Assembly: GCA_964615565.1 (NCBI GenBank)
Contig: CAZTPC010000001.1
Coordinates: forward strand, 7,353 to 71,352
Source of the DNA: an uncultured Candidatus Saccharibacteria bacterium
GTDB taxonomy: Bacteria; Patescibacteriota; Saccharimonadia; Saccharimonadales; AWTP1-31
Length of the DNA stretch: 64,000 bases
Reading direction: 5' to 3'
The position numbers were made by a program, and so were the translations under genes. Shown piece by piece: positions 31,633 through 62,713 of this stretch. How positions within the stretch are numbered: position 1 is the first letter of the stretch; every line of letters starts with the position of its first letter. The notes under the pieces were generated by a model, which ran no database searches, had not been told where the DNA came from, and saw nothing but the letters and a program-made list of their open reading frames with translations.

Positions 31633-32340
31633 ATGAATTCTGTTAAAAGACTTACAAGTTTAAGTGCGGTTATTGTCCTCGTCGGGGCCGTTTTCTTGGT
31701 TACGCCAGTTGCCTTGGCTGCCGAGCAGAGCACCACTCAAACAACAACCACCACCAAAACTACCGAAAAGCCAGCTGCAAAGATTGCTGATCGCATTGCA
31801 AAGTACAAGACCAAACAAGAAGTTAAGCTGGCAGCTGCCGAAGAACTTAAGCTCAAGGGCGTATGCAAGGCAGCCCAGGTTAAGCTCAAGAAAGTGGATA
31901 CAGCCACGAGCGAAGCCAACACAGATCGAACAAAGACGTATGCTGGCATTACCAAACAAATAGACGGTATTATCACAAAACTTAAAGATGCTAGCGTCGA
32001 CACCAAAGAGCTCGAAGCTAACCAGAAAGCTCTAAAAGCTCTCATCCAGCAATACAACGACGATTACACGGTATTCAAGACAGACCTAACGGATGTATCA
32101 GAATTAGACTGCGTTACCGATCCGGTCGCTTTCAAATCTGCGCTACTTGTTGCAAGGGAAGACAGATTGACAGTTGTAAAAGACGCTACCGCAATTCGTG
32201 AGTACATCACGACAATTAAGCAAAGCCTGCTCACCGCTCGAATCTCATTGGCTGCTCGTGCTGATGCAAAAGATACTACCAAGAAAGATGCAACCGACAC
32301 AACGACTACTACAACAGATTCAACCGGAGACCCACAATAA
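31633..32340 (+). CDS. secreted Lys/Thr-rich coiled-coil protein (hypothetical)
   Basis: Signal peptide (VIVLVGAVFLVTPVALAA), a poly-Thr tract and K-rich helical repeats. Confidence 0.55.
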   Translation: MNSVKRLTSLSAVIVLVGAVFLVTPVALAAEQSTTQTTTTTKTTEKPAAKIADRIAKYKTKQEVKLAAAEELKLKGVCKAAQVKLKKVDTATSEANTDRTKTYAGITKQIDGIITKLKDASVDTKELEANQKALKALIQQYNDDYTVFKTDLTDVSELDCVTDPVAFKSALLVAREDRLTVVKDATAIREYITTIKQSLLTARISLAARADAKDTTKKDATDTTTTTTDSTGDPQ

Positions 32341-33191
32341 TGGATGACGTTCGACCTCCACGTAGGCCAATCACCCCCGGAGCAGACATTGCCGGCGTGC
32401 CACCACGCAAGCCGATGCCACCTATGCGACCACAAACCCCACACGTTGATCCGTCTGCAAGCGAAACTCCTCCACCTGCGCCAGAAACACCTGTTAGCCA
32501 GCCAATTAGGGTGCCAATTGTAGATCACGACAAACCGCCTGCTTTTGAGGCTCCAACTCTAGACGACCTTAAACTAGACGTACCTAGTGATATTGACGCA
32601 GTTATCGAAGGCCGCCCATCACAACCAGAAGACCCTACTCCGCCGCCAGCTGCAGGCCCAGTCGACCCAGAGGTACTTGCCAGCGTCACCGAAGATCTCT
32701 CAACTCTAGAACCCGAAGTAAGTTCTGAGATGCAGAACGAAGAGCCTAAAGATGAGTCATTGGATCTTCCAGCAACAACTGAATCTCCAGTAGCTGAATC
32801 TACTCAAGCTCCCGAACCTACTAGTGCAGGTTCTAGCTTGCTCGCCGAAATCGAAGCTCAAGAAAAATCTGACTCAGAGGGTCGAGTAACTGCTGCTCCA
32901 ACAACACAGCCACCCCGCAAAGGTCGCGGGCCGGCTATTTTGATCGCTGTTATCCTTGCATTAGCACTCATTGTTGGTGCTGGGTATGCATACCTACAGA
33001 ACAATAAGGAAACACCAAAGACTGTAAAGACTCCTGCGACTACACCCGCCAAGACAGTGACTAAAGACCCAGCAACAGTCGATGATGTCGATGCTGCAGC
33101 AAATGAAATTCAGGCAGCAATCGATAAGATCGATGAGACCAAGCAACTCCAAGAGTCTGATCTAACAGATACCAACCTCGGTATCCAGTAA
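32340..33191 (+). CDS. proline-rich membrane-anchored protein (hypothetical)
   Basis: Pro-rich, low-complexity N-terminal 190 aa and a single TM helix (AILIAVILALALIVGAGYAYL). Start overlaps the previous stop (TAATGG). Confidence 0.55.
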   Translation: MDDVRPPRRPITPGADIAGVPPRKPMPPMRPQTPHVDPSASETPPPAPETPVSQPIRVPIVDHDKPPAFEAPTLDDLKLDVPSDIDAVIEGRPSQPEDPTPPPAAGPVDPEVLASVTEDLSTLEPEVSSEMQNEEPKDESLDLPATTESPVAESTQAPEPTSAGSSLLAEIEAQEKSDSEGRVTAAPTTQPPRKGRGPAILIAVILALALIVGAGYAYLQNNKETPKTVKTPATTPAKTVTKDPATVDDVDAAANEIQAAIDKIDETKQLQESDLTDTNLGIQ

Positions 33192-34196: not shown

Positions 34197-34772
34197 ATGA
34201 TTAATCCAGACGCTCGGCCAAACACTGACCAGAGACGGTACAGTTTTGAGCTGGTACAGCCAGAGGAGATACCTGAAGTAGCTGCTTTCATGCAACCGGT
34301 ATACGCCGATACGTATCCAAACGAAGCAAGGGGAACGACGAAAGAAATGTTTGATGATCCATTGTTTCGGGAACATGTCGAAGAGTATCTTGGGGATCAA
34401 CTTGCTACTCCGGGAAGGAATTTATGGGTGGCTCGTGACGAACAAGGTATCGTCGGGAGTATCGGCCTAGAGGCTGATGCAGACCCAAGTAATCCAGAAA
34501 TATGGGGATTCTATGTGGATGTTGATAGGCAGGGCGAAGGAGTCGGCTCAGAACTTTGGGAACAGGTCATGTCTACTAAGCAATTAGCTGATGCTGATAA
34601 GGTTCATTTGAACGTGGCGGTTGACTCACCCCAGGCAGCGCATTTCTACGAAGATAAGGGTATGCAGAAAGTAGGCGAGCCATTTACTGTCCAATGGCCT
34701 CAATGGAAACAAGAGTACCGCGATGCTGGGTTAACAAATGAATATCAACGTATGGAGATGAACTTACGATGA
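34197..34772 (+). CDS. GNAT family N-acetyltransferase
   Basis: GNAT motif A region (IWGFYVDVDRQGEGVGSELW). Start taken at MINPD because the longer ORF would overlap the mscS start. Confidence 0.7.
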   Translation: MINPDARPNTDQRRYSFELVQPEEIPEVAAFMQPVYADTYPNEARGTTKEMFDDPLFREHVEEYLGDQLATPGRNLWVARDEQGIVGSIGLEADADPSNPEIWGFYVDVDRQGEGVGSELWEQVMSTKQLADADKVHLNVAVDSPQAAHFYEDKGMQKVGEPFTVQWPQWKQEYRDAGLTNEYQRMEMNLR

Positions 34773-35266
34773 ACGTAACGCTAATGAACGCAATTAGTAT
34801 TGATGGATTTATCGCCAAACCGGATGGTGATTCTGACTGGGTTAAGGACGACGAGCAGTTCGATGCCGCATTGGTAGATTTCGGATGTATCCTGATTGGC
34901 CATAGTACGTTTACGCAGTACGAGAATGATCTGTATCCAATTGCAGGCGCAACTACTTTTGTGTATACGCATGACAAAACTCTTACCAATACGGAAGGTG
35001 TGCAGTATGTTTTTGGCGAACCCAAAGATGTACTTGAGCAAATTCAAGCCGCTGGATTCGATAAAGTACTGCTTGGTGGAGGCGGTAAAGCTAACGCCAG
35101 TTTTGCAAAAGCAGGTCTGATAACAGATATGATTTTAGACGTGCATCCACTAGTTTTGGGCGATGGGATCCGTTTGTTGGGCGACTTTGACCGACAACTT
35201 AAACTTGAACTACAGAGCAAACAAGACTTTACAGACTTTGTGCAATTGCGGTATAACGTTCAGTAA
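34769..35266 (+). CDS. dihydrofolate reductase-like / RibD C-terminal domain family protein
   Basis: MNAISIDGFIAKPDGDSDW ... VLLGGGGKANASF ... matches the DHFR-family fold signature. Start overlaps the previous stop by 4 nt. Confidence 0.7.
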   Translation: MNVTLMNAISIDGFIAKPDGDSDWVKDDEQFDAALVDFGCILIGHSTFTQYENDLYPIAGATTFVYTHDKTLTNTEGVQYVFGEPKDVLEQIQAAGFDKVLLGGGGKANASFAKAGLITDMILDVHPLVLGDGIRLLGDFDRQLKLELQSKQDFTDFVQLRYNVQ

Positions 35267-35267
35267 T

Positions 35268-35843
35268 ATGGATTTCTCATCTGTTAATGACCCAAAGCTT
35301 ACCACATTGCTCTCTCATGGGGCGGTTGGCATACTACCAACTGACACAATTTACGGCATCGTGGCCAATGCCAGCAATCGGCAGGCTGTTGAGCGAATGT
35401 ACGCGCTTAAATCTCGTGAGAAAAAGCCAGGCACACTCATAGCGGCAAATCTAGAGCAGATCGTCAAACTTGGACTCAAGAAGCGTTATCTAACGGTTGT
35501 CGAGGATTATTGGCCAGGACCTGTGACAGTGGTTGTTCCAACATCTACTCACGATACTGACTATCTTGACCAAGGTGTCGGATCGCTAGCAGTCAGGGTT
35601 ATTGACGACCCCAAGATCATTGAACTTCTCGAGAAGACTGGTCCACTTATTACATCTAGTGCAAATCATCCTGGAGAGGCCCCAGCTAATACTATAGCCG
35701 AGGCAAAACAGTATTTTGGTGATCAAGTCGACTTCTACACCGATGGGGGTGATCTAAGCGGCCGAAAGCCATCGACAATACTGCGTGTAGTCGACGACAC
35801 GATTGAAATCTTGCGCGAAGGCGCAGTAAAGATCAACACTTAA
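35268..35843 (+). CDS. tsaC: L-threonylcarbamoyladenylate synthase (YrdC/Sua5 family)
   Basis: YrdC motifs (GILPTDTIYGIVANASN..AVERMYALKSREKKPGTLI). ATG lies 1 nt after the upstream TAA. Confidence 0.8.
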   Translation: MDFSSVNDPKLTTLLSHGAVGILPTDTIYGIVANASNRQAVERMYALKSREKKPGTLIAANLEQIVKLGLKKRYLTVVEDYWPGPVTVVVPTSTHDTDYLDQGVGSLAVRVIDDPKIIELLEKTGPLITSSANHPGEAPANTIAEAKQYFGDQVDFYTDGGDLSGRKPSTILRVVDDTIEILREGAVKINT

Positions 35844-35857
35844 CAGGGGTATGGGCA

Positions 35858-35886
35858 TTGACTCATAGCTGTAAGTGTGTTAGAAT
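35858..35886 (+). promoter_or_regulatory. sigma70-like promoter for the three-gene helicase operon (TTGACT-N17-TGT-TAGAAT), predicting a leaderless transcript
   Basis: TTGACT at 35858-35863, a 17-nt spacer ending TGT (extended -10) and TAGAAT at 35881-35886. ATG 35897 lies 10 nt downstream with no SD, giving a leader of about 3-4 nt. Confidence 0.5.
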
Positions 35887-35896
35887 ATAGTTAGTT

Positions 35897-36631
35897 ATGG
35901 CACATGTAAACCCAGAACGTGATGCAACACAGCCAACCCTTAATGTAGAGGCGCTTCTTTTTGATAATCAAGATCTAGAGCAGTCTTTGCGTGCAGAGCT
36001 TGTACGACAACTAACACCAGAGCGTTTTATGGATCTTTTGGCCGATCATAGAGATGCCTACTGTGACGACGAAGCTCCAGTTTTGGCCGCAATCGAGAAG
36101 TTTGCAGGTGCAGCGAAAGTCGAATTTCTAGAGCCAACTACTCCTGAAGAAGAGTTATCAAGGCATGTGGTGAGTGTCGAAGCAGATGTGAGCTCGTTTA
36201 TTGAGTCGCGTCTGCCACTCAGATCGTTAAGCTTGCTCTCTATAGATGAATTAGAACAATTAGCCGAAATTTATAACCCAACAAACTTGCTGTATTTAGC
36301 CAAGGCACTCTCCAGTGAAGACGGCTTATCATTGTCACCTGTCCAAGGAGACATGTTGTTTCGATATCGCAATGTACTTAGCCAGATAGACCATATGCGC
36401 AACGAGGTTGAGGCTGCCGAGATGCGTGAGCTACAGGGCAATATTGGCGCAGCCACTGTTGGTTACAGAACATGGGCGGGCGATCTCCACCCATATGGCG
36501 TCGAACAAAGAGGGCGTATTGTCACAGACGAGTTCCGAGACTTTTCAGAGAAAGAAGATGATGGGCGCAGTGTAGTTACGGTTGGCGGTGTCCCTGTTAG
36601 GGTTTCAATCAGAAACACGGGAGTCATCTAA
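35897..36631 (+). CDS. hypothetical protein (244 aa), first gene of helicase operon
   Basis: Acidic protein with no recognisable motif. Its stop overlaps the next start (TAATG). Confidence 0.65.
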   Translation: MAHVNPERDATQPTLNVEALLFDNQDLEQSLRAELVRQLTPERFMDLLADHRDAYCDDEAPVLAAIEKFAGAAKVEFLEPTTPEEELSRHVVSVEADVSSFIESRLPLRSLSLLSIDELEQLAEIYNPTNLLYLAKALSSEDGLSLSPVQGDMLFRYRNVLSQIDHMRNEVEAAEMRELQGNIGAATVGYRTWAGDLHPYGVEQRGRIVTDEFRDFSEKEDDGRSVVTVGGVPVRVSIRNTGVI

Positions 36632-37632
36632 TGGCTGCTCCATTGTCTGCACACCAGGTCGAAGCATCGTTTGGCGTCGAAATACGGCACAGCTATACGG
36701 CGGCCACAGAAATGCCGCCAGAGGTAAGCGCTGCAGAATTACTGCAACAGTTCGAGCAAGAAGGCGATAACGAAGCGGCTAGAGCGCTAGATTATGCCGC
36801 TTACGAGGTTGGCCAGTTAGTAACCATCACCCGCGAGGTAGATGGTGAGGCCGATGGTCTCCTAGATATATTTACCGGGGCGCAAGTGATCGAGATGCAG
36901 AAACGCATCCGAGACTACTTGGGTAAAAGTCTAGATGAGCATCTTGACGATATTAAGGCAGCACCAGGTTTCAGCTACTATGTTGGACGACTGGCTACGC
37001 ACTTCTTCTCTAGTGACGATGATGTGACAACAAGGTTCGGAGACTTTGTAACTAACCATATTGATCCCGAGCCAGGTGCCCGTGGGCCGCTCGAAAAGAA
37101 CTCACGCGAATATGCCAACTGGGCAAACCAAGCACTTATTACTCAATTCAACGAATTTTATCAGGCAGACTTCCAGATTGAATTGGCGGGTCCAACCAAA
37201 ACGGTTGAGGGCTCTCGCGTTTCATGGGAGCGCGGCATAGCTGAGTCTCAATTCTTAATACTTGATTACGTTCGTGACTTACTTGCGATGGGTAATAGCT
37301 CTCGAGTTACAAGCGAAGGTGTTCCAACCATGACTATCGATGACCTAGAGGCGAACCTTCGAAATCTACTTCTAGAAAAAGATCGTATTGTCGCAGAGGC
37401 CAAGACAATCAACCCAATCCTTGCTAGTCAGATCGAGGGAAGTATTGAAGGCCTACAGTCTTACACGATGGGCGTATTCCACCGGGGACGTATGGACGTC
37501 CCTCGATTCCGAAAGCACCCAGCCAACGCTCGTCTTGCGATCGTCAAAGTAGAGGCGTTGTTATTCGAGGCTGCTGCCATGGCTGCGACTCGTGAAGACC
37601 AGGCTGATATTCCAATCTTGGATCTCGAATAA
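36631..37632 (+). CDS. hypothetical protein (333 aa), second gene of helicase operon
   Basis: No recognisable motif, translationally coupled to its neighbours. A weak D...E.QK segment does not make a convincing PD-(D/E)xK. Confidence 0.65.
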   Translation: MAAPLSAHQVEASFGVEIRHSYTAATEMPPEVSAAELLQQFEQEGDNEAARALDYAAYEVGQLVTITREVDGEADGLLDIFTGAQVIEMQKRIRDYLGKSLDEHLDDIKAAPGFSYYVGRLATHFFSSDDDVTTRFGDFVTNHIDPEPGARGPLEKNSREYANWANQALITQFNEFYQADFQIELAGPTKTVEGSRVSWERGIAESQFLILDYVRDLLAMGNSSRVTSEGVPTMTIDDLEANLRNLLLEKDRIVAEAKTINPILASQIEGSIEGLQSYTMGVFHRGRMDVPRFRKHPANARLAIVKVEALLFEAAAMAATREDQADIPILDLE

Positions 37633-37642
37633 GGTATAACCC

Positions 37643-40339
37643 ATGGTTGACACATCACAAGACCCAGAACGATCAGCAGAGGTGCTGGGCGAGGGTGATT
37701 TATATCGAAACTCAGGCCTAACAGACCAACTCAACGAATCAGAGATCTCGGGGATAATTGCACGACTGGGTTCATTGGTACTCGACGAGGATACGGTTCT
37801 TGAAGAACATCAAAGAGAGCAGTTTAACGATGTTGTTCAGTTCTTCCAGGATGGTGGTAGAGAGTGTTATGTGAAGTCTCCAACTGGTACCGGTAAATCT
37901 GTTTTAATTGTCGAACTCAGTAAAAAACTTATTGAGACAATGCAGGAAGATGATGAGCCACAACGAGTTATCGTTTTAGCGCCGACAATCGATCTTGTCG
38001 AACAGATCGTGGGTGGCATAGAAGAAGACACTGGCAAGCGTCGTGGCTTTAAGGGGTTTGCTCCAGAGCTCGAAGCTCGATCGATTAACGGCAAAATGAC
38101 TCTTAATACGCGCATTCAGAATATTGGCGAAGCAGAGGTGTTGGTAACTACCTACGATACCTTCCGGAATCTGATTGCAGGTTTTGTTGACGGGGAAGAG
38201 CTTAGCGAAGAGGCAGTATCAGAACAGATCGCAGATCTTGAGCGTCAAGAGAACGAACATAAAGATGCCAATAGGCGCCTCAAGCGAGAGCGCGACCAGC
38301 ACCTTCGCGACGCCTGTGAGCGGCAAGACGTACGGCATGTTCGACAAAGAGCAGAAGACTTGATTGGTTCAGCGGCTCGAGGTGAGATTCTTGATAACAA
38401 AGCAGGGGCTGCCGTGGAGCGTTTCTTGGAAATCGCTGATGATGAGGGTATAACTGCCGAACGAAAGATTCAAGAGATGAAGCACGCCGCCAGAACTTTG
38501 ACGAATAAACGAGTTACAATGGCGGCGACATGGATGCACAAGCGTCGAAGAATGCATCGACAAGAGTTTGTAGTAGAGAAGAATGGTGACCCCGATGACT
38601 ATATTGCACTTACTGAAGATGAGTTAGATGCTGAGGCGCGAGATGCCTTTGGTCTAGATAGTATGGAGCGCTACCTAGCAATGTTCTTGCTTCAGAATCG
38701 CACCGCCAGACCTGCAATGGCATCAAAGCTTGAACTACGTAAAGATGTAGACGAAATAGAGAGACTAGAAGACCTTGCAGACGACGAACGTGACATGCAG
38801 TATCACGCCAAGGGTCAAGCTAAAGCACTAAAGACAAAGTGGATATTTGCTGATGCTATTTCTAAGTTTGGGCTAGTTGTCTGTGACGAGGCACACCGAG
38901 CAATCGGTACAGAGACCTGGCAAGCTATTCGTGACTTTGCCGAACGTAAAGAGATTGCGGTTGTTGGTCTTACGGCCACCGATGAATATTCAGATAGGTC
39001 ACTCGAAGACTACTTTGAGCAGAGGGTCCATGAGCTGACAAAGCAAGAAGCAATGCGTCGTAAGATTGTAAACCCAATCGCAATGTTCTCACATGATACT
39101 GGGCTACTGTTTAAAAACGTTTCTATTGATGCAAACGGTGATTACGACCGTGCAACGATTAAGCAGATGAGACTCAACGAAGAGCGTAACCAGATTGGTG
39201 TAAATTACGCGCAGATGCTAAGTGAGATGGGATACTCGGGCATTATGCCGGCCATTCCTGGAGACGGTGCTGCACATGCGAAGGTCTTGGCTGAGATGAT
39301 CAACAACACCATAATGATCGATCCAAAGACTGGCGAGGAACGTTTTATGCGAGCCTGCGCAGTTGATGGTAAAACCGATCCTGAGCTACGCAAGGAATAC
39401 TTCCGGCAGTACGAGGCGGGTGAGATTGACTGGATCTGTTTTGTCGATGTTATCCGTGAAGGCTGGGACAGCGACAAAGCAAAAGCGATTATCAACATGC
39501 GGCCAACTCGTTCGATATTGCTTGCAACGCAGCGTGTTGGACGTATAGGACGTACTTATCCTGGCGCTCCAGTCTCTATTGCAATTGATCTATTCGATGG
39601 AATTCTACTTGAGGATGGCGGCATGGAATTACCACCTGTCTTGGTGGCAGATGTGTTTGGCATGGACAATGTAGAGCAAGGTGCAATTGCCGGTGGTGTC
39701 GAGGCCTCGCTGCTAGACAGTGACCTAGAGCGACTACGGCAAGCCATGCCAACAGGAGTTATTGAGGCGCACCATTCACGGTACGTTCGGATAGTTAAAG
39801 AAGCTCAGCTTATCGATGCACGAGGTATCGCCAAAACCGAGACCGGGGCACAAAGGAATGAATGGCAAACTTTCGAGGCCATTCGTCGCGGCTTTAATGG
39901 CTTTTTGCCCAAAGAGATTATTCTCGACGCAATAGAGGGCGATAATCCGACTGTTCGTGTTACCAACGGTAAGAGCGGTGGCAATATCGTTCCGTTATTT
40001 AACATCAGCGATGTACTTGCCTTGCATAAAGATGCACCCGAGATAAACCCATGGAGATTATATAAAGACACTACTGGCACTGACTGGATCAGCCCAGAAG
40101 GTTGTACCGTTCTACTTTCTAAGCGGTTCCCAAATATCGCATCAGAAGAAATCTCTGACGTACTTCGGATGATAGAAGAAGAGCAAGGACAGAAGTTTGA
40201 GAAGCAGGTCGCGCGATTCCGCATTAACTTCAACGGTAACCCTGTTACTCGCCTTGGCTATACGCACTTATTTAGGCTGAGTGAAGTTATGGAACGACTT
40301 GTTCCGTATCTAAAAGATCTCGCTACGCTACAAAGTTAG
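37643..40339 (+). CDS. superfamily 2 DEAH-type helicase (898 aa) with long charged coiled-coil insertion in RecA domain 1 and uncharacterised 270-aa C-terminal domain
   Basis: Motif I KSPTGTGKS, Ia VLAPTIDLVEQ, Ib TTYDTF, II VVCDEAHRA, III LTATDE and VI QRVGRIGR. About 250 aa of E/R/K-rich helix lie between Ib and II. Confidence 0.85.
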   Translation: MVDTSQDPERSAEVLGEGDLYRNSGLTDQLNESEISGIIARLGSLVLDEDTVLEEHQREQFNDVVQFFQDGGRECYVKSPTGTGKSVLIVELSKKLIETMQEDDEPQRVIVLAPTIDLVEQIVGGIEEDTGKRRGFKGFAPELEARSINGKMTLNTRIQNIGEAEVLVTTYDTFRNLIAGFVDGEELSEEAVSEQIADLERQENEHKDANRRLKRERDQHLRDACERQDVRHVRQRAEDLIGSAARGEILDNKAGAAVERFLEIADDEGITAERKIQEMKHAARTLTNKRVTMAATWMHKRRRMHRQEFVVEKNGDPDDYIALTEDELDAEARDAFGLDSMERYLAMFLLQNRTARPAMASKLELRKDVDEIERLEDLADDERDMQYHAKGQAKALKTKWIFADAISKFGLVVCDEAHRAIGTETWQAIRDFAERKEIAVVGLTATDEYSDRSLEDYFEQRVHELTKQEAMRRKIVNPIAMFSHDTGLLFKNVSIDANGDYDRATIKQMRLNEERNQIGVNYAQMLSEMGYSGIMPAIPGDGAAHAKVLAEMINNTIMIDPKTGEERFMRACAVDGKTDPELRKEYFRQYEAGEIDWICFVDVIREGWDSDKAKAIINMRPTRSILLATQRVGRIGRTYPGAPVSIAIDLFDGILLEDGGMELPPVLVADVFGMDNVEQGAIAGGVEASLLDSDLERLRQAMPTGVIEAHHSRYVRIVKEAQLIDARGIAKTETGAQRNEWQTFEAIRRGFNGFLPKEIILDAIEGDNPTVRVTNGKSGGNIVPLFNISDVLALHKDAPEINPWRLYKDTTGTDWISPEGCTVLLSKRFPNIASEEISDVLRMIEEEQGQKFEKQVARFRINFNGNPVTRLGYTHLFRLSEVMERLVPYLKDLATLQS

Positions 40340-41618
40340 CGCGCAGCCACTCGTCTAGGCTGTCGCCACCACCACCTGCCATACCAACAACCATGTCGCC
40401 AGCGTCCAAGTGTTTCTGGATGGCTATTTTTAGCTTGTCGTCACGTTTAGCAGCCTGGGCAATGGATGGATCGGATAGATGACTAATGAGCTCTTCTGGT
40501 GGGATGATTCGCTGGTTTGGGTCTTCTCGCGCAAGGTAGCTCGGGATCCAATACACTTTTTCTGCTCCGGCAAAACTGTCTTTGTAATCATCGATCATAT
40601 AATGCTGCCGGCGATTGGTTAGTGGTTCGTAGATGATAATGACTTTTTGCTCTTTTTCTGCGGCCATTTCTAGCGCCACACTCATGCCACCACGTACTTT
40701 TTCAGGTGTGTGGGCATAGTCGGAATATAGGTTCGGCACAAGTTGTTCCATCCGTCGCTGCAGCCCTGGAAACTTGCTCATAAGCGGTATTAACTTTGCA
40801 ATCGGTACTTTGGTAATCTCGTGAACTGCTTGAATGACCAGCCAGGCATCGAGTCGGTTAAATCGTCCGGCCAGTGCAACTTCGTTTATTTGTGGATGGT
40901 CGCTAGTGAGCACATCTAGCTTCGAAGTCCCAGTCAAGCCCAGGTAATCGTAATCTTCTTGCCATAGAACGGTACGGCTAGACTGGCCGATAAACTCTTT
41001 GAAAGCTTCCTGGTAATCTTCACGAGTAGGGAAGATCTCATGATGATCCCAAGTCACACCAGTTATGACACTCAAGTACGGCTCAAATGCTAAGAAATTA
41101 CGATCGAACTCGTCGCATTCGTACACAAATACGTCACTAGTTGGGTCAAAATGGCCCATCTCAGCAAAGCTAGTTTTAGCCGGCAAAATGTAACTTTGGG
41201 GCACCTTCAGCTGGGTCAGTAACCAAACGGCCATAGCAGTGGTAGTAGTCTTGCCATGCGTGCCAGCGATAGCGATCATCTTGAGTTTTTTGTCACTAAC
41301 TATCAGGTTGATCAGTTCGTCGCGTTTGCTGCGTTTAATATTCTGACTCTCGGCGTATACCAACTCCGGATGGTTTGGATTTTCTTTTACAACGGCAGAC
41401 GAATACACAAACCAATCAATTGGCGTAGCTTCATGTACGCGTGCCATATCCTCTACCGTTTGACCAATATGTATATCGGTAATCCCATGCTTTTTCAGAT
41501 ACTGAATATACTGCGAGTCTTGCTTGTCGCTACCAGAAACTTTGTAGCCGGCCTGCTTGGCGATCATGGCCAATGGGCCTACGCCTGTGCCACCAATTCC
41601 ACTAATGTAAATATGCAT
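40323..41618 (-). CDS. murC: Mur ligase, most likely UDP-N-acetylmuramate--L-alanine ligase
   Basis: MurC-like N-terminus (MHIYISGIGGTGVGPLAMIAKQAGYKVSGSD) and Mur ligase P-loop (GTHGKTTTTAM). Start taken at MHIY; the ORF opens at 41669. Confidence 0.75.
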   Translation of the reverse strand: MHIYISGIGGTGVGPLAMIAKQAGYKVSGSDKQDSQYIQYLKKHGITDIHIGQTVEDMARVHEATPIDWFVYSSAVVKENPNHPELVYAESQNIKRSKRDELINLIVSDKKLKMIAIAGTHGKTTTTAMAVWLLTQLKVPQSYILPAKTSFAEMGHFDPTSDVFVYECDEFDRNFLAFEPYLSVITGVTWDHHEIFPTREDYQEAFKEFIGQSSRTVLWQEDYDYLGLTGTSKLDVLTSDHPQINEVALAGRFNRLDAWLVIQAVHEITKVPIAKLIPLMSKFPGLQRRMEQLVPNLYSDYAHTPEKVRGGMSVALEMAAEKEQKVIIIYEPLTNRRQHYMIDDYKDSFAGAEKVYWIPSYLAREDPNQRIIPPEELISHLSDPSIAQAAKRDDKLKIAIQKHLDAGDMVVGMAGGGGDSLDEWLRANFVA

Positions 41619-41654
41619 ATGTTTAGTATAGCTGGGTCTGCTAGTATTAGTACC

Positions 41655-42314
41655 ATGCCGCAAAAACAAACAGGGCCAACAATTCTATTTTTGCAAGATG
41701 GTGACCGTCGCTGGGCGGAGCGCGAAGGTGTATCGTACCGCGAAGGGTACGAAAAAATGACCGAAAAAATCGGCCTGCTTATCAACACTCTCGCAAAAAA
41801 AGGAATTAATAAACTGTATTTGCCGTCCAACTCTATTGCTAATCTGAGCCGGCCAAAAGAGCAGGTAGATGCTTGGTTCGAAGCTTATCTGAACTTGCCC
41901 AAGTATGTAGATGTTCCGCTCAACATTATTTTCTGTGGTGACGTCGATAGAATTCCTGAAGAGTTCAAGGATCGCTACGATCAACTTCAGGCTAGTTCCG
42001 ATCCTGAAGGTTTTGAATTTCACTTCTTACTGAACTGGTCAACGCTCGACGAGATAGCTCGTATTAGTACTAAGATTGCTAAAGAACACAAAGTGATTAC
42101 CCCGGAGCTTCTACTGCAGTATTCAGACATCCCAGAACCAGTTGACCTGGTTGTGCGTAGCGGTAAGCGCCGACGAATCTCTTCGTTTATGCCTCTCTCG
42201 GGACAGTATTCAGAGCTTGTATTCCTGGATATCTTGTTTCCCGATCTTACAGAATCAGACGTCGAATGGTTTCTAGAAGAGTACGCTACCCGCGAACGTA
42301 CGTACGGTAAGTAG
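41655..42314 (+). CDS. uppS: cis-prenyltransferase (undecaprenyl-diphosphate synthase family)
   Basis: UPPS motifs (LFLQDGDRRWA, SxxNxxR as LPSNSIANLSR, RSGKRRRISSFMPLSGQYSELVFLDILFPD). The long N-terminal extension of the track ORF is antisense to murC and was rejected. Confidence 0.8.
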   Translation: MPQKQTGPTILFLQDGDRRWAEREGVSYREGYEKMTEKIGLLINTLAKKGINKLYLPSNSIANLSRPKEQVDAWFEAYLNLPKYVDVPLNIIFCGDVDRIPEEFKDRYDQLQASSDPEGFEFHFLLNWSTLDEIARISTKIAKEHKVITPELLLQYSDIPEPVDLVVRSGKRRRISSFMPLSGQYSELVFLDILFPDLTESDVEWFLEEYATRERTYGK

Positions 42315-61696: not shown

Positions 61697-62431
61697 CTAA
61701 CAACCTTTGCCGGCAAGGGGTACGATAAAGCTTCCTGCTGCAATACTCTTGTGAAAATATGGGTCAGTGGGCTGTTTAGTTAAGACATCAACCACATAGC
61801 TAATTTCCTGGCCGTACGCTCCACGCTTTTTAAGGTTCTTTTCGGTAAGGCGTTTTTCTTCTTCTGTCCATGTGCCGTAACCTTTTGTGTAGTAGCCCCA
61901 TCCTTCGGTTAAGAATTGGGTATATCCACCGATAATAAAGCGTTCCATGTATGGGTGTTCTGTAGTTACCGCAAAGCCAGACTGTGTGCCGGTGTGCATT
62001 CGGTCATCAAAGCTATCAGACATGATGCCGTTGATGGCAGACTTCTTTGCCTTGAGTGAGGCGTCGGCATGGAAGTTCTCAATCTGTACGTCAGGCATCA
62101 ATTCAGGTAGAGGTTGATCTTTATTAGCCTTGATAGCCAAGTTGATATCGAGCGACTTTGTGTCGGTAACTTTCCAGCTATCAGTGTCATATTCAGTGGA
62201 GAATGTAGCCTCTAGGTCGAATGCTTCGCCCGGAACATCCAGTGTCTGGGTTAGGCTACGGTCACCTTCTAGACCGCTTGTCATACAGGCTGATTTTCGG
62301 TCATGTGAGCTTCGCGAGTCCTCCGGTTTTTGCGGGTCGCAACCGCTGAGTGCTCCCGCCCCAAGTGCGAGTGATGTTACTAATGCTACTGCGCGTAGTG
62401 CGTTTCCAAATTCATGACCTCGTAGCGCCAT
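61697..62431 (-). CDS. lipoprotein (hypothetical)
   Basis: Signal peptide with lipobox (LALGAGALSGC). Confidence 0.6.
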   Translation of the reverse strand: MALRGHEFGNALRAVALVTSLALGAGALSGCDPQKPEDSRSSHDRKSACMTSGLEGDRSLTQTLDVPGEAFDLEATFSTEYDTDSWKVTDTKSLDINLAIKANKDQPLPELMPDVQIENFHADASLKAKKSAINGIMSDSFDDRMHTGTQSGFAVTTEHPYMERFIIGGYTQFLTEGWGYYTKGYGTWTEEEKRLTEKNLKKRGAYGQEISYVVDVLTKQPTDPYFHKSIAAGSFIVPLAGKGC

Positions 62432-62713
62432 AGTTTTCTCCTTGTTTGCTTTATAACAAACAAATAGTTCGACTTTTGAGGCCGAACTACTACAAAGAGA
62501 GTCCAGTCTGCCCGGTTACGCTAGTGGCTCCGTATAACTCAAGCGTCCAAGTACGAGTTATAGATCAATGCCTACAGAACTATCTGTTATCAAAAATATA
62601 TCACTTAATTACCTATTGCACAAGTATGTGACGTTGCATACTTTGTGGTAGCTCAGCTGGTTTTCAGCAAGTCCAACTACTATGCAGGTAATAACTAATG
62701 TAAGGAAACTATT

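Follow-up and report, generated by a model that had tools for sequence, protein, structure and literature searches.

The 64,000-nucleotide stretch of DNA analysed here in full (hereafter, the window) comes from an uncultured Candidatus Saccharibacteria bacterium (GenBank assembly GCA_964615565.1, contig CAZTPC010000001.1, positions 7,353 to 71,352 of the forward strand) and carries, in its list of open reading frames (ORFs), three co-oriented + strand ORFs between tsaC and murC that encode two orphan proteins (A and B, genes orfA and orfB) and a large superfamily 2 (SF2) helicase. An initial annotation of the window had proposed that this trio forms a self-contained, co-expressed unit and, by analogy with helicase-based defence operons, possibly an anti-phage system. 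We find that the trio is kept as a unit in Candidatus Saccharibacteria, is variably present at this site, has a helicase architecture that is new and is undescribed in the libraries and papers searched; as a tentative reading, to which we grant somewhat less than an even chance, its products may form a DNA-translocase complex that surveys foreign or aberrant DNA.

A three-gene operon between tsaC and murC

The trio, its putative promoter and its two flanking genes are arranged as follows (window coordinates; lengths in amino acids (aa); pI, isoelectric point):

35897–36631, + strand: orfA, 244 aa, acidic (pI 4.5), orphan family
36631–37632, + strand: orfB, 333 aa, acidic (pI 4.6), orphan family; its start overlaps the orfA stop (TAATG)
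37643–40339, + strand: gene for a DEAH SF2 helicase of the ResIII/COG1061 type, 898 aa
35858–35886, + strand: promoter-like site, TTGACT-17 nt-TAGAAT with TG before the -10 hexamer; 10 of 12 positions matched, the best match of the region
35163–35843, + strand: tsaC (Sua5/YciO/YrdC family), left flank, Pfam 2e-43
40323–41669, − strand: murC (Mur ligase), right flank, Pfam Mur_ligase, Mur_ligase_M and Mur_ligase_C

Direct reading of the sequence bears out the tight coupling of the three ORFs that had been described between tsaC and murC: orfA and orfB meet in a TAATG stop-start overlap (TCTAATGG; wider read GGAGTCATCTAATGG), a GGAG lies 7 nt upstream of the orfB start, and a gap of 10 nt separates orfB from the helicase gene (TAAGGTATAACCCATG). 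These junctions, together with the tight spacing of the genes in homologous trio loci, support the proposal of a self-contained co-expressed unit. Position 35844 is merely the first base past the tsaC stop; the coding unit itself begins at 35897, which leaves a tsaC-orfA spacer of 53 nt. At the other end the helicase gene is convergent with murC, the helicase stop and the murC 3' end overlapping by 17 nt.

Within the spacer, the promoter-like site ends 10 nt before the orfA ATG, and no Shine-Dalgarno sequence is present ahead of this ATG when the sequence is read directly. As the promoter count of the whole region is not above that of shuffled sequences, the site is supported by its position and conservation rather than by the scan itself: of 10 homologous loci, 8 have the same geometry (TTGACT, 17–18 nt, TGnTAATAT/TATAAT and an ATG 3–10 nt further on) ahead of orfA. 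In seven loci (L001, L004, L006, L007, L008, L010 and L103), the 70 nt upstream of orfA hold a near-consensus extended -10 promoter at 3–10 nt from the ATG and lack a Shine-Dalgarno sequence. The orfA mRNA is thus predicted to be leaderless or nearly so, and, because the geometry recurs in 8 of the 10 loci, a leaderless or near-leaderless mRNA would be a conserved design. Given that this promoter placement is kept across very divergent trio loci, we suggest that leaderless translation may be a regular mode of expression in these organisms. The initial claim of a leaderless first gene consequently stands as regards the promoter 10 nt before the ATG and the missing Shine-Dalgarno sequence, and stays a prediction from the sequence as regards the transcript.

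The starts of both flanking genes probably need revision. The longest tsaC ORF (226 aa) begins with the ATG at 35163 and shares about 100 nt with the RibD_C gene that precedes it (34769–35266); because tsaC homologues are about 171–190 aa long and the Pfam match begins at residue 49 of the longest ORF, translation probably begins at 35268 (ATG) instead. For murC, too, the true start probably lies downstream of the TTG at 41669, as the MurC of a related genome (L001) has 435 aa. Beyond these two genes the neighbours in the window are ordinary (HhH-GPD glycosylase, MscS, GNAT, RibD_C, UppS, MFS and ABC transporter), and the trio region itself holds no Rfam family and no tRNA.

An SF2 motor with a predicted coiled-coil arm and two orphan proteins

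The helicase belongs to the SF2 ResIII/COG1061 (SSL2-type) group, as both diagnostic Pfam families lie above their gathering scores (ResIII 6e-20, 72.2 bits versus a cut-off of 22.5; Helicase_C 7e-11, 42.9 bits versus a cut-off of 23.5) and the motifs and two RecA folds are present; Pfam DEAD (4e-13) and the PHROGs family phrog_16 'DNA helicase' (3e-43) were also matched, and SF2 helicase folds were found at a probability of 1.00. Motifs I (PTGTGK), II (DEAH, residues 415–418), III (TAT) and VI (QRxGRxGR) are invariant across 17 homologues, and with all catalytic ATPase motifs intact the motor looks active. The ResIII match falls into two halves (residues 53–185 and about 400–500) with about 220 residues inserted between them, and in the AlphaFold2 (AF2) model (mean predicted local distance difference test (pLDDT) score 80.9) RecA1 is split by an insertion at residues 186–405. 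Pfam and the AF2 model thus agree with the initial description of an 898-aa DEAH helicase with an unusual insertion and an unmatched C-terminus, and the protein can be divided as follows (Q-like, I, Ia and so on denote helicase motifs):

37760–38197, + strand: first part of RecA1 (Q-like HQ, motifs I, Ia and Ic), residues 40–185; mean pairwise identity 58%
38198–38857, + strand: RecA1 insertion between motifs Ic and II, residues 186–405; from DSSP of the AF2 model
38858–39607, + strand: rest of RecA1 (II DEAH, III TAT) and RecA2 (IV–VI), residues 406–655; mean identity 60–64%
39608–40336, + strand: C-terminal region, residues 656–898; from AF2 secondary structure

In the AF2 model the insertion is predicted to be an arm, that is, a long antiparallel coiled coil (helices 189–245 and 366–406) with a helical tip. 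It has no Pfam match, is highly charged and is net basic in most homologues; its length is kept (208–234 aa), yet its mean pairwise identity is 19% as opposed to 58–64% in the motor. Searches of PDB and of the BFVD viral models for similar folds matched the motor only (query-normalised TM-score at most 0.34) and returned no structure with the arm or the C-terminus. The predicted helicase architecture, with a coiled-coil arm inside RecA1, is new. The best PDB fold was RadD (8h5y, Foldseek E 2e-11, query-normalised TM-score 0.31), followed by motor-only matches to MDA5, RecQ, UvrB, XPB, MrfA and SauUSI; SauUSI was also the best PDB match by sequence (1.6e-7), and BFVD gave generic phage SSL2-type helicases only (best E 3e-15).

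Given that the nearest relatives in sequence and fold are DNA enzymes (RadD, SauUSI-like enzymes, XPB and phage DNA helicases), we infer that the helicase acts on DNA rather than RNA. An RNA helicase complex, acting for example in ribosome biogenesis or RNA decay, seems to us very improbable. Such a role would fit the presence of eIF4A, DbpA, Dbp2 and the RIG-I-like MDA5 and DRH-1 among the fold matches, weak NCBIfam matches to SrmB, CshA and RhlE, and a DEAD-box gene immediately upstream of the trio in two loci (L103 and L104), but the fold matches reflect generic RecA-core similarity with very high root-mean-square deviation, the signature is ResIII/DEAH and not DEAD-box, the closest sequences (SauUSI-like, RadD and phage DNA helicases) are DNA enzymes and so rare a distribution is atypical of ribosome biogenesis factors. 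The DEAD-box gene of these two groundwater-type loci (L103 30–1208 and L104 1–1182; 392 aa) directly precedes orfA and is seen nowhere else, and its adjacency is probably coincidental.

The C-terminal region (about 240 residues) has no Pfam match at E values up to 10 and no PDB profile match. In the AF2 model it holds two modules (residues about 744–793 and 814–897), each with a helix-helix-hairpin-helix topology, which align with one another in register weakly (hhalign E 0.057); this suggests that they may be winged-helix-like and bind DNA.

More distant relatives of the helicase were found in Saccharimonadia by a GTDB scan (L012–L014). One of them, a stand-alone sister helicase of 962 aa (L012 1487–4375, + strand), lies between the oligoribonuclease gene orn and dnaG. 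From motif II to the end of RecA2 it is similar to the trio helicase (hhalign E 1.5e-38, 33% identity), and the two have the signatures IPGD.G.HAK, GEIDW, REGWD, NMRPT.SP.LA.QR.GR and EQG in common. Unlike the trio helicase, the sister is without the coiled-coil insertion, its gene is not accompanied by orfA or orfB, and the protein ends in a much longer C-terminus with repeats resembling helix-turn-helix (HTH) units (weak HTH_28 match, E 0.013). Because the motors are similar and the arm, A and B are missing from the sister, the trio helicase looks like a derivative of a Saccharimonadia-specific COG1061 lineage that gained its arm together with its two partners.

Another reading is a RapA- or Mfd-like translocase that works on transcription or on the chromosome, or else a remodeller; the winged-helix modules would target specific DNA sites and A and B would be acidic regulatory subunits. 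The predicted winged-helix-like modules, the long HTH-like array of the sister helicase with its weak HTH_28 match, a weak Pfam SWI2_SNF2 match of the trio helicase (8.6e-9), the presence of Mfd among the fold matches and the constitutive look of the promoter are all in keeping with this role. Against it, neither sequence nor fold searches support the winged-helix assignment, the SWI2_SNF2 match covers the generic motif II–III region only, no domain for interaction with RNA polymerase is found and the rarity of the module (see below) sits poorly with a core regulatory function; on balance we regard it as improbable.

Proteins A and B are true orphan families as far as sequence comparison goes. 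As stated initially, the 244- and 333-aa proteins have no recognisable domain: Pfam, PADLOC, PHROGs and NCBIfam gave no family match above noise at E values up to 1, whether the window proteins themselves, their long and divergent homologues or 15 B-family members were used, and PDB profile searches with alignments of 4, 7 and 15 sequences were equally empty. No nuclease motif was recognised in the family searches, and A and B are paralogous neither to each other nor to a helicase segment (hhalign E 0.18–0.5). Both are acidic in all homologues (pI 4.5–5.1) and lie around the lowest tenth of pI among the ORFs of the window (median 6.3). The homologues of A measure 240–398 aa overall, with an N-terminus that is hypervariable and differs in length, and a conserved core made up of the motifs IYNxxNLL and YRYR and a small C-terminal part (W.G..YG..G.I...F). 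By word search we found four relatives of A and seven of B, and a homologue of A stands upstream of B in every trio locus. An exhaustive hidden Markov model search with the B profile against 1.84 billion representative proteins gave 20 matches (96–343 aa), all of them within the family itself and none fused to another domain.

An accessory module of Saccharibacteria

Among 5.8 billion proteins, the word search returned 17 full-length relatives of the helicase (38–100% identity); their scores fall from 616 to 70 bits, after which only generic SF2 helicases follow, most of them SauUSI-like. All hosts with names are metagenome-assembled genomes of Candidatus Saccharibacteria, and the trio is restricted to this group. 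All three genes follow the order A-B-helicase in each of 11 distinct contexts, namely the window, an L001-type context (L001–L003), an L103-type context (L102–L104), L004, L006, L007, L008, L009, L010 and L011; L005, which carries P0005 as L004 does, is a short fragment that has B but only a part of A, and L002 is cut inside the helicase gene. In these loci the intergenic gaps are short or the genes overlap, and the neighbours, again ordinary genes of metabolism, envelope or regulation (NUDIX, hydrolases, response regulators, LytR, MFS and AA_kinase), differ from context to context, the tsaC-trio-murC arrangement being confined to the window and the L001-type context. The three genes are strictly co-inherited, and ORFs of such size that keep their order in 11 contexts are far beyond chance; the trio travels as a unit, in line with the initial proposal. 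Correlating the pairwise identities of A, B and helicase was uninformative, as the tree is star-like at about 45% identity and two close pairs drive the Pearson values.

Whether the trio belongs to the tsaC-murC junction as such can be read from related genomes. Metagenome contigs of the Joint Genome Institute were scanned with MurC, and 80 loci among the matches listed (L022–L101; MurC 53–76% identical, at most 10 kb per side) were compared: A, B and the helicase occur in none of them, which is an absence within about 10 kb of murC and not from the whole genome. The MurC proteins of the window, L001 and L022 are about equidistant (window-L001 78%, window-L022 76%, L001-L022 79%), and L022, whose tsaC and murC are separated by five other genes, has no trio within 10 kb. 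In the simplest state of the junction (L028, L035, L036 and L048) tsaC is convergent with murC and lies within about 10 nt of its end, and other loci hold 0.4–3.4 kb of unrelated cargo there, including a frequent MazG-like gene of 110–113 aa, PNPOx, RibD_C, Exo_endo_phos, NTPase_I-T, a histidine kinase and membrane proteins. RibD_C lies upstream of tsaC in the window and downstream of it in L022. Because L022 is equally close and yet without the trio at this site, the tsaC-murC junction is a fluid spot in Saccharibacteria: genomes that are equally closely related may have or lack the trio there, and it is no universally conserved part of the locus. The family is also rare, with 17 to 20 clusters as opposed to at least 443 MurC relatives confirmed in one collection. 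Since gene order is kept amid changing neighbours and the trio is absent from the 80 related murC loci, the trio is an autonomous accessory module and not a lineage-wide housekeeping unit.

An accessory module at changing sites could be a domesticated remnant or cargo of a phage or other mobile element, that is, a replication or recombination helicase or an anti-defence module stranded in the chromosome. The strongest family match of the helicase is indeed the phage family phrog_16, many phage SSL2-type helicases in BFVD have similar cores, the acidic partners recall DNA mimics and the trio occupies different sites in different genomes. We nevertheless give this origin little credence: the helicase and B have no relatives on 2.9 million IMG/VR viral contigs, the viral fold matches are confined to the motor at the low TM-scores given above, no integrase, transposase, tRNA target or flanking repeats were found in any context, and the GC content of the region (0.47–0.49) is in line with the rest of the window and matches that of the host. 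Around the trio in the window, only short repeats at chance level were seen and none that would mark an element boundary. Where the trio is shared at the same site, window and L001 differ in A (57% identity), B (66%) and helicase (64%) about as they do in TsaC (55%), MscS (73%) and MurC (78%).

Known helicase systems and possible functions

None of the known systems that resemble the trio accounts for it: the PADLOC scan of the three proteins matched no known defence system, searches of Pfam, PADLOC, PHROGs, NCBIfam and PDB linked none of them to a housekeeping helicase complex that has been characterised, and literature searches found no description of an A-B-helicase operon. The nearest sequence relatives outside the family are SauUSI-like type IV restriction enzymes (PDB 7clg, 1.6e-7; PADLOC mREase_IV, 2e-12), which combine PLD, helicase and DUF3427 domains in a single polypeptide, unlike the three-gene trio. 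The similarity is limited to motifs II–VI (about 27–30% of the query at 23–27% identity), and a type IV restriction enzyme of this kind was rejected, as the Pfam scan of the trio helicase finds neither PLDc_2 nor DUF3427, both of which are carried by the SauUSI-like proteins recovered (P0028–P0049). Type I and III restriction-modification was rejected as well, given that only the ResIII motor matches and that A, B and the neighbours have no methyltransferase or nuclease domain.

The initial annotation had likened the trio to Hachiman and DISARM, a likeness that holds as an analogy in gene content and fails at the level of the proteins that define the two systems. Hachiman (HamA nuclease and HamB helicase) is similarly an SF2 helicase operon with a partner of initially unknown function, but has two genes rather than three; A, B and 15 B-family members have no DUF1837/HamA match (Pfam; PADLOC at E up to 1), and HamB is not among the 12 PADLOC matches of the helicase, the best of which are mREase_IV and PbeA (1e-11 to 1e-12). 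Druantia (DruE and variable subunits) and DISARM (DrmA/B/C and a methylase) resemble the trio in that a large SF2 helicase is encoded with partner genes; the helicase is central to a multi-gene operon in both, and the partners vary by subtype. DISARM was rejected because the trio and the adjacent genes have no DUF1998, PLD or methyltransferase domain, and Druantia because no trio protein matches DUF1998 or, in PADLOC, any Dru profile (DruA–D, DruE or DruH); the only link to either is a MrfA/DUF1998 helicase among the generic fold matches.

RadD (E. coli YejH), an SF2 DNA repair helicase of the COG1061 group, has the same make-up of ResIII and Helicase_C and is the best NCBIfam match (3.4e-12). 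Identity with RadD was rejected at 45.5 bits against an equivalog cut-off of 720 bits (NCBIfam NF053632). RadD has no coiled-coil insertion in RecA1 and carries a zinc ribbon and a C-terminal domain that binds the single-stranded-DNA-binding protein SSB, whereas the C-terminus of the trio helicase is different and unmatched; RadD is not known to be encoded with two partner genes. Archaeal XPB (Ssl2)-Bax1 shares with the trio the ResIII/Helicase_C (SSL2-type) motor class and the pairing of a helicase gene with a dedicated partner gene, XPB (in TFIIH) is among the fold matches, and the BFVD matches are annotated SSL2. Neither A nor B matches Bax1 (DUF790), and the DRD and thumb elements of XPB are distinct from the RecA1 arm.

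These relationships make an accessory complex for DNA repair, recombination or replication restart, a Saccharibacteria counterpart of RadD, XPB-Bax1 or MrfAB with A and B as partners that recognise or process lesions or forks, a reading that we consider doubtful on its own terms and nearly as likely as surveillance. RadD heads both the structural and the NCBIfam matches, XPB, UvrB, RecQ and MrfA stand among the folds, the neighbours are ordinary chromosomal genes without defence islands, signs of mobility (GC anomaly, flanking repeats) are missing, the window and L001 have the trio at one site with a divergence like that of housekeeping neighbours, and in a different genome of Saccharimonadia the stand-alone sister helicase gene has orn and dnaG as its neighbours. 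Yet 45.5 bits against 720 and a TM-score of 0.31 indicate that the match is to the motor in general, neither A nor B resembles Bax1, MrfB or any nuclease, and a repair complex would be expected to be distributed more evenly than a module with 17 helicase clusters and 20 B representatives that is missing at the locus in L022.

We tentatively prefer a role in surveillance, in which the trio forms one three-subunit, ATP-driven DNA-translocase complex that surveys foreign or aberrant DNA (for example, in anti-phage defence, control of mobile elements or control of incoming DNA), because its presence is patchy, its chromosomal sites change and a conserved motor is combined with a fast-diverging periphery (the arm and the N-terminus of A). 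In such a complex the COG1061/ResIII-type SF2 core, related to RadD, XPB and SauUSI, would be the motor, the two winged-helix-like C-terminal modules would anchor DNA, and the antiparallel coiled-coil arm of about 220 residues projecting from RecA1 may serve as a docking platform or lever for A and B, for which the contrast in charge between the acidic partners and the mostly net basic arm is offered as an argument. Translational coupling on a single constitutive, near-leaderless mRNA would keep the output of A and B in a fixed ratio to that of the helicase; the helicase would act as sensor and motor, and A and B as regulators or as effectors of some kind. The working model, by analogy, is Hachiman, whose helicase is reported to sense DNA and to control its partner (PMC12278908, PMC11914072).

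A more specific version, in which the trio is a new type of immune or DNA-surveillance complex particular to Patescibacteria, appears unlikely to us, if conceivable: the fast-evolving arm would hold two acidic proteins of new fold as sensor and effector, A and B would have no homologue among known nucleases, NADases or membrane effectors, and an encounter of the motor with foreign DNA would release or activate them. A precedent for the surveillance reading in general is that Patescibacteria genomes contain few known defence systems, whereas functional selections have recovered defence genes exclusive to this group that lack recognisable homology (PMC12366544); the Dallas system and LdgA described there involve no helicase (PMC12366544).

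Several results weigh against surveillance. No effector domain (nuclease, methylase, PLD, TIR, SIR2 or similar) was found in the three proteins by family searches, and the PADLOC matches of the helicase are generic to the helicase core (1e-12 or weaker). Annotation with Pfam found no defence or mobility gene among the trio neighbours in any context, and the ten unannotated neighbours had no PADLOC match, a check of low power in Patescibacteria, given how rarely known systems are detected there (PMC12366544). The helicase and B are missing from the viral contigs searched, and flanking repeats and a GC anomaly are missing at the trio; given the shared insertion site and the housekeeping-like divergence between the window and L001, the trio seems to be old and, where present, to have been passed on mostly by vertical descent. 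The 80 murC loci, moreover, speak only for the vicinity of murC. Complex formation and the role of the arm are hypotheses, and the model of B is of only moderate quality (pLDDT 65.6). The initial step from a helicase with unknown partners to an anti-phage system was thus not upheld, as effector domains, defence neighbours, viral relatives, mobile boundaries and compositional anomaly are all wanting.

Patescibacteria (the candidate phyla radiation) have tiny genomes with very few recognisable systems for defence or DNA surveillance, and an operon of 4.5 kb is a large investment for a genome of Saccharibacteria size. The trio pairs its new helicase architecture with two protein families for which 1.84 billion proteins include about 20 representatives. 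Were it an immune or DNA-gatekeeping module, it would represent a new kind of effector logic and a system specific to the lineage; were it a repair complex, it would show how the reduced genomes of epibionts replace missing repair functions. As the operon is compact and has its own promoter, these readings are directly testable by heterologous expression.

Two further features of the window lie apart from the trio. On the + strand at 32340–33191 a 283-aa, proline-rich, low-complexity protein (pI 4.3) is encoded by the most acidic ORF of the window, with a single C-terminal hydrophobic segment read off the translation. On the − strand, a c-di-GMP-II riboswitch (Rfam RF01786) was detected at 62501–62584 (54.8 bits against a gathering score of 53.5, E 2.3e-9), directly upstream of an ORF at 61697–62431 (− strand) for a 244-aa protein without a Pfam domain.

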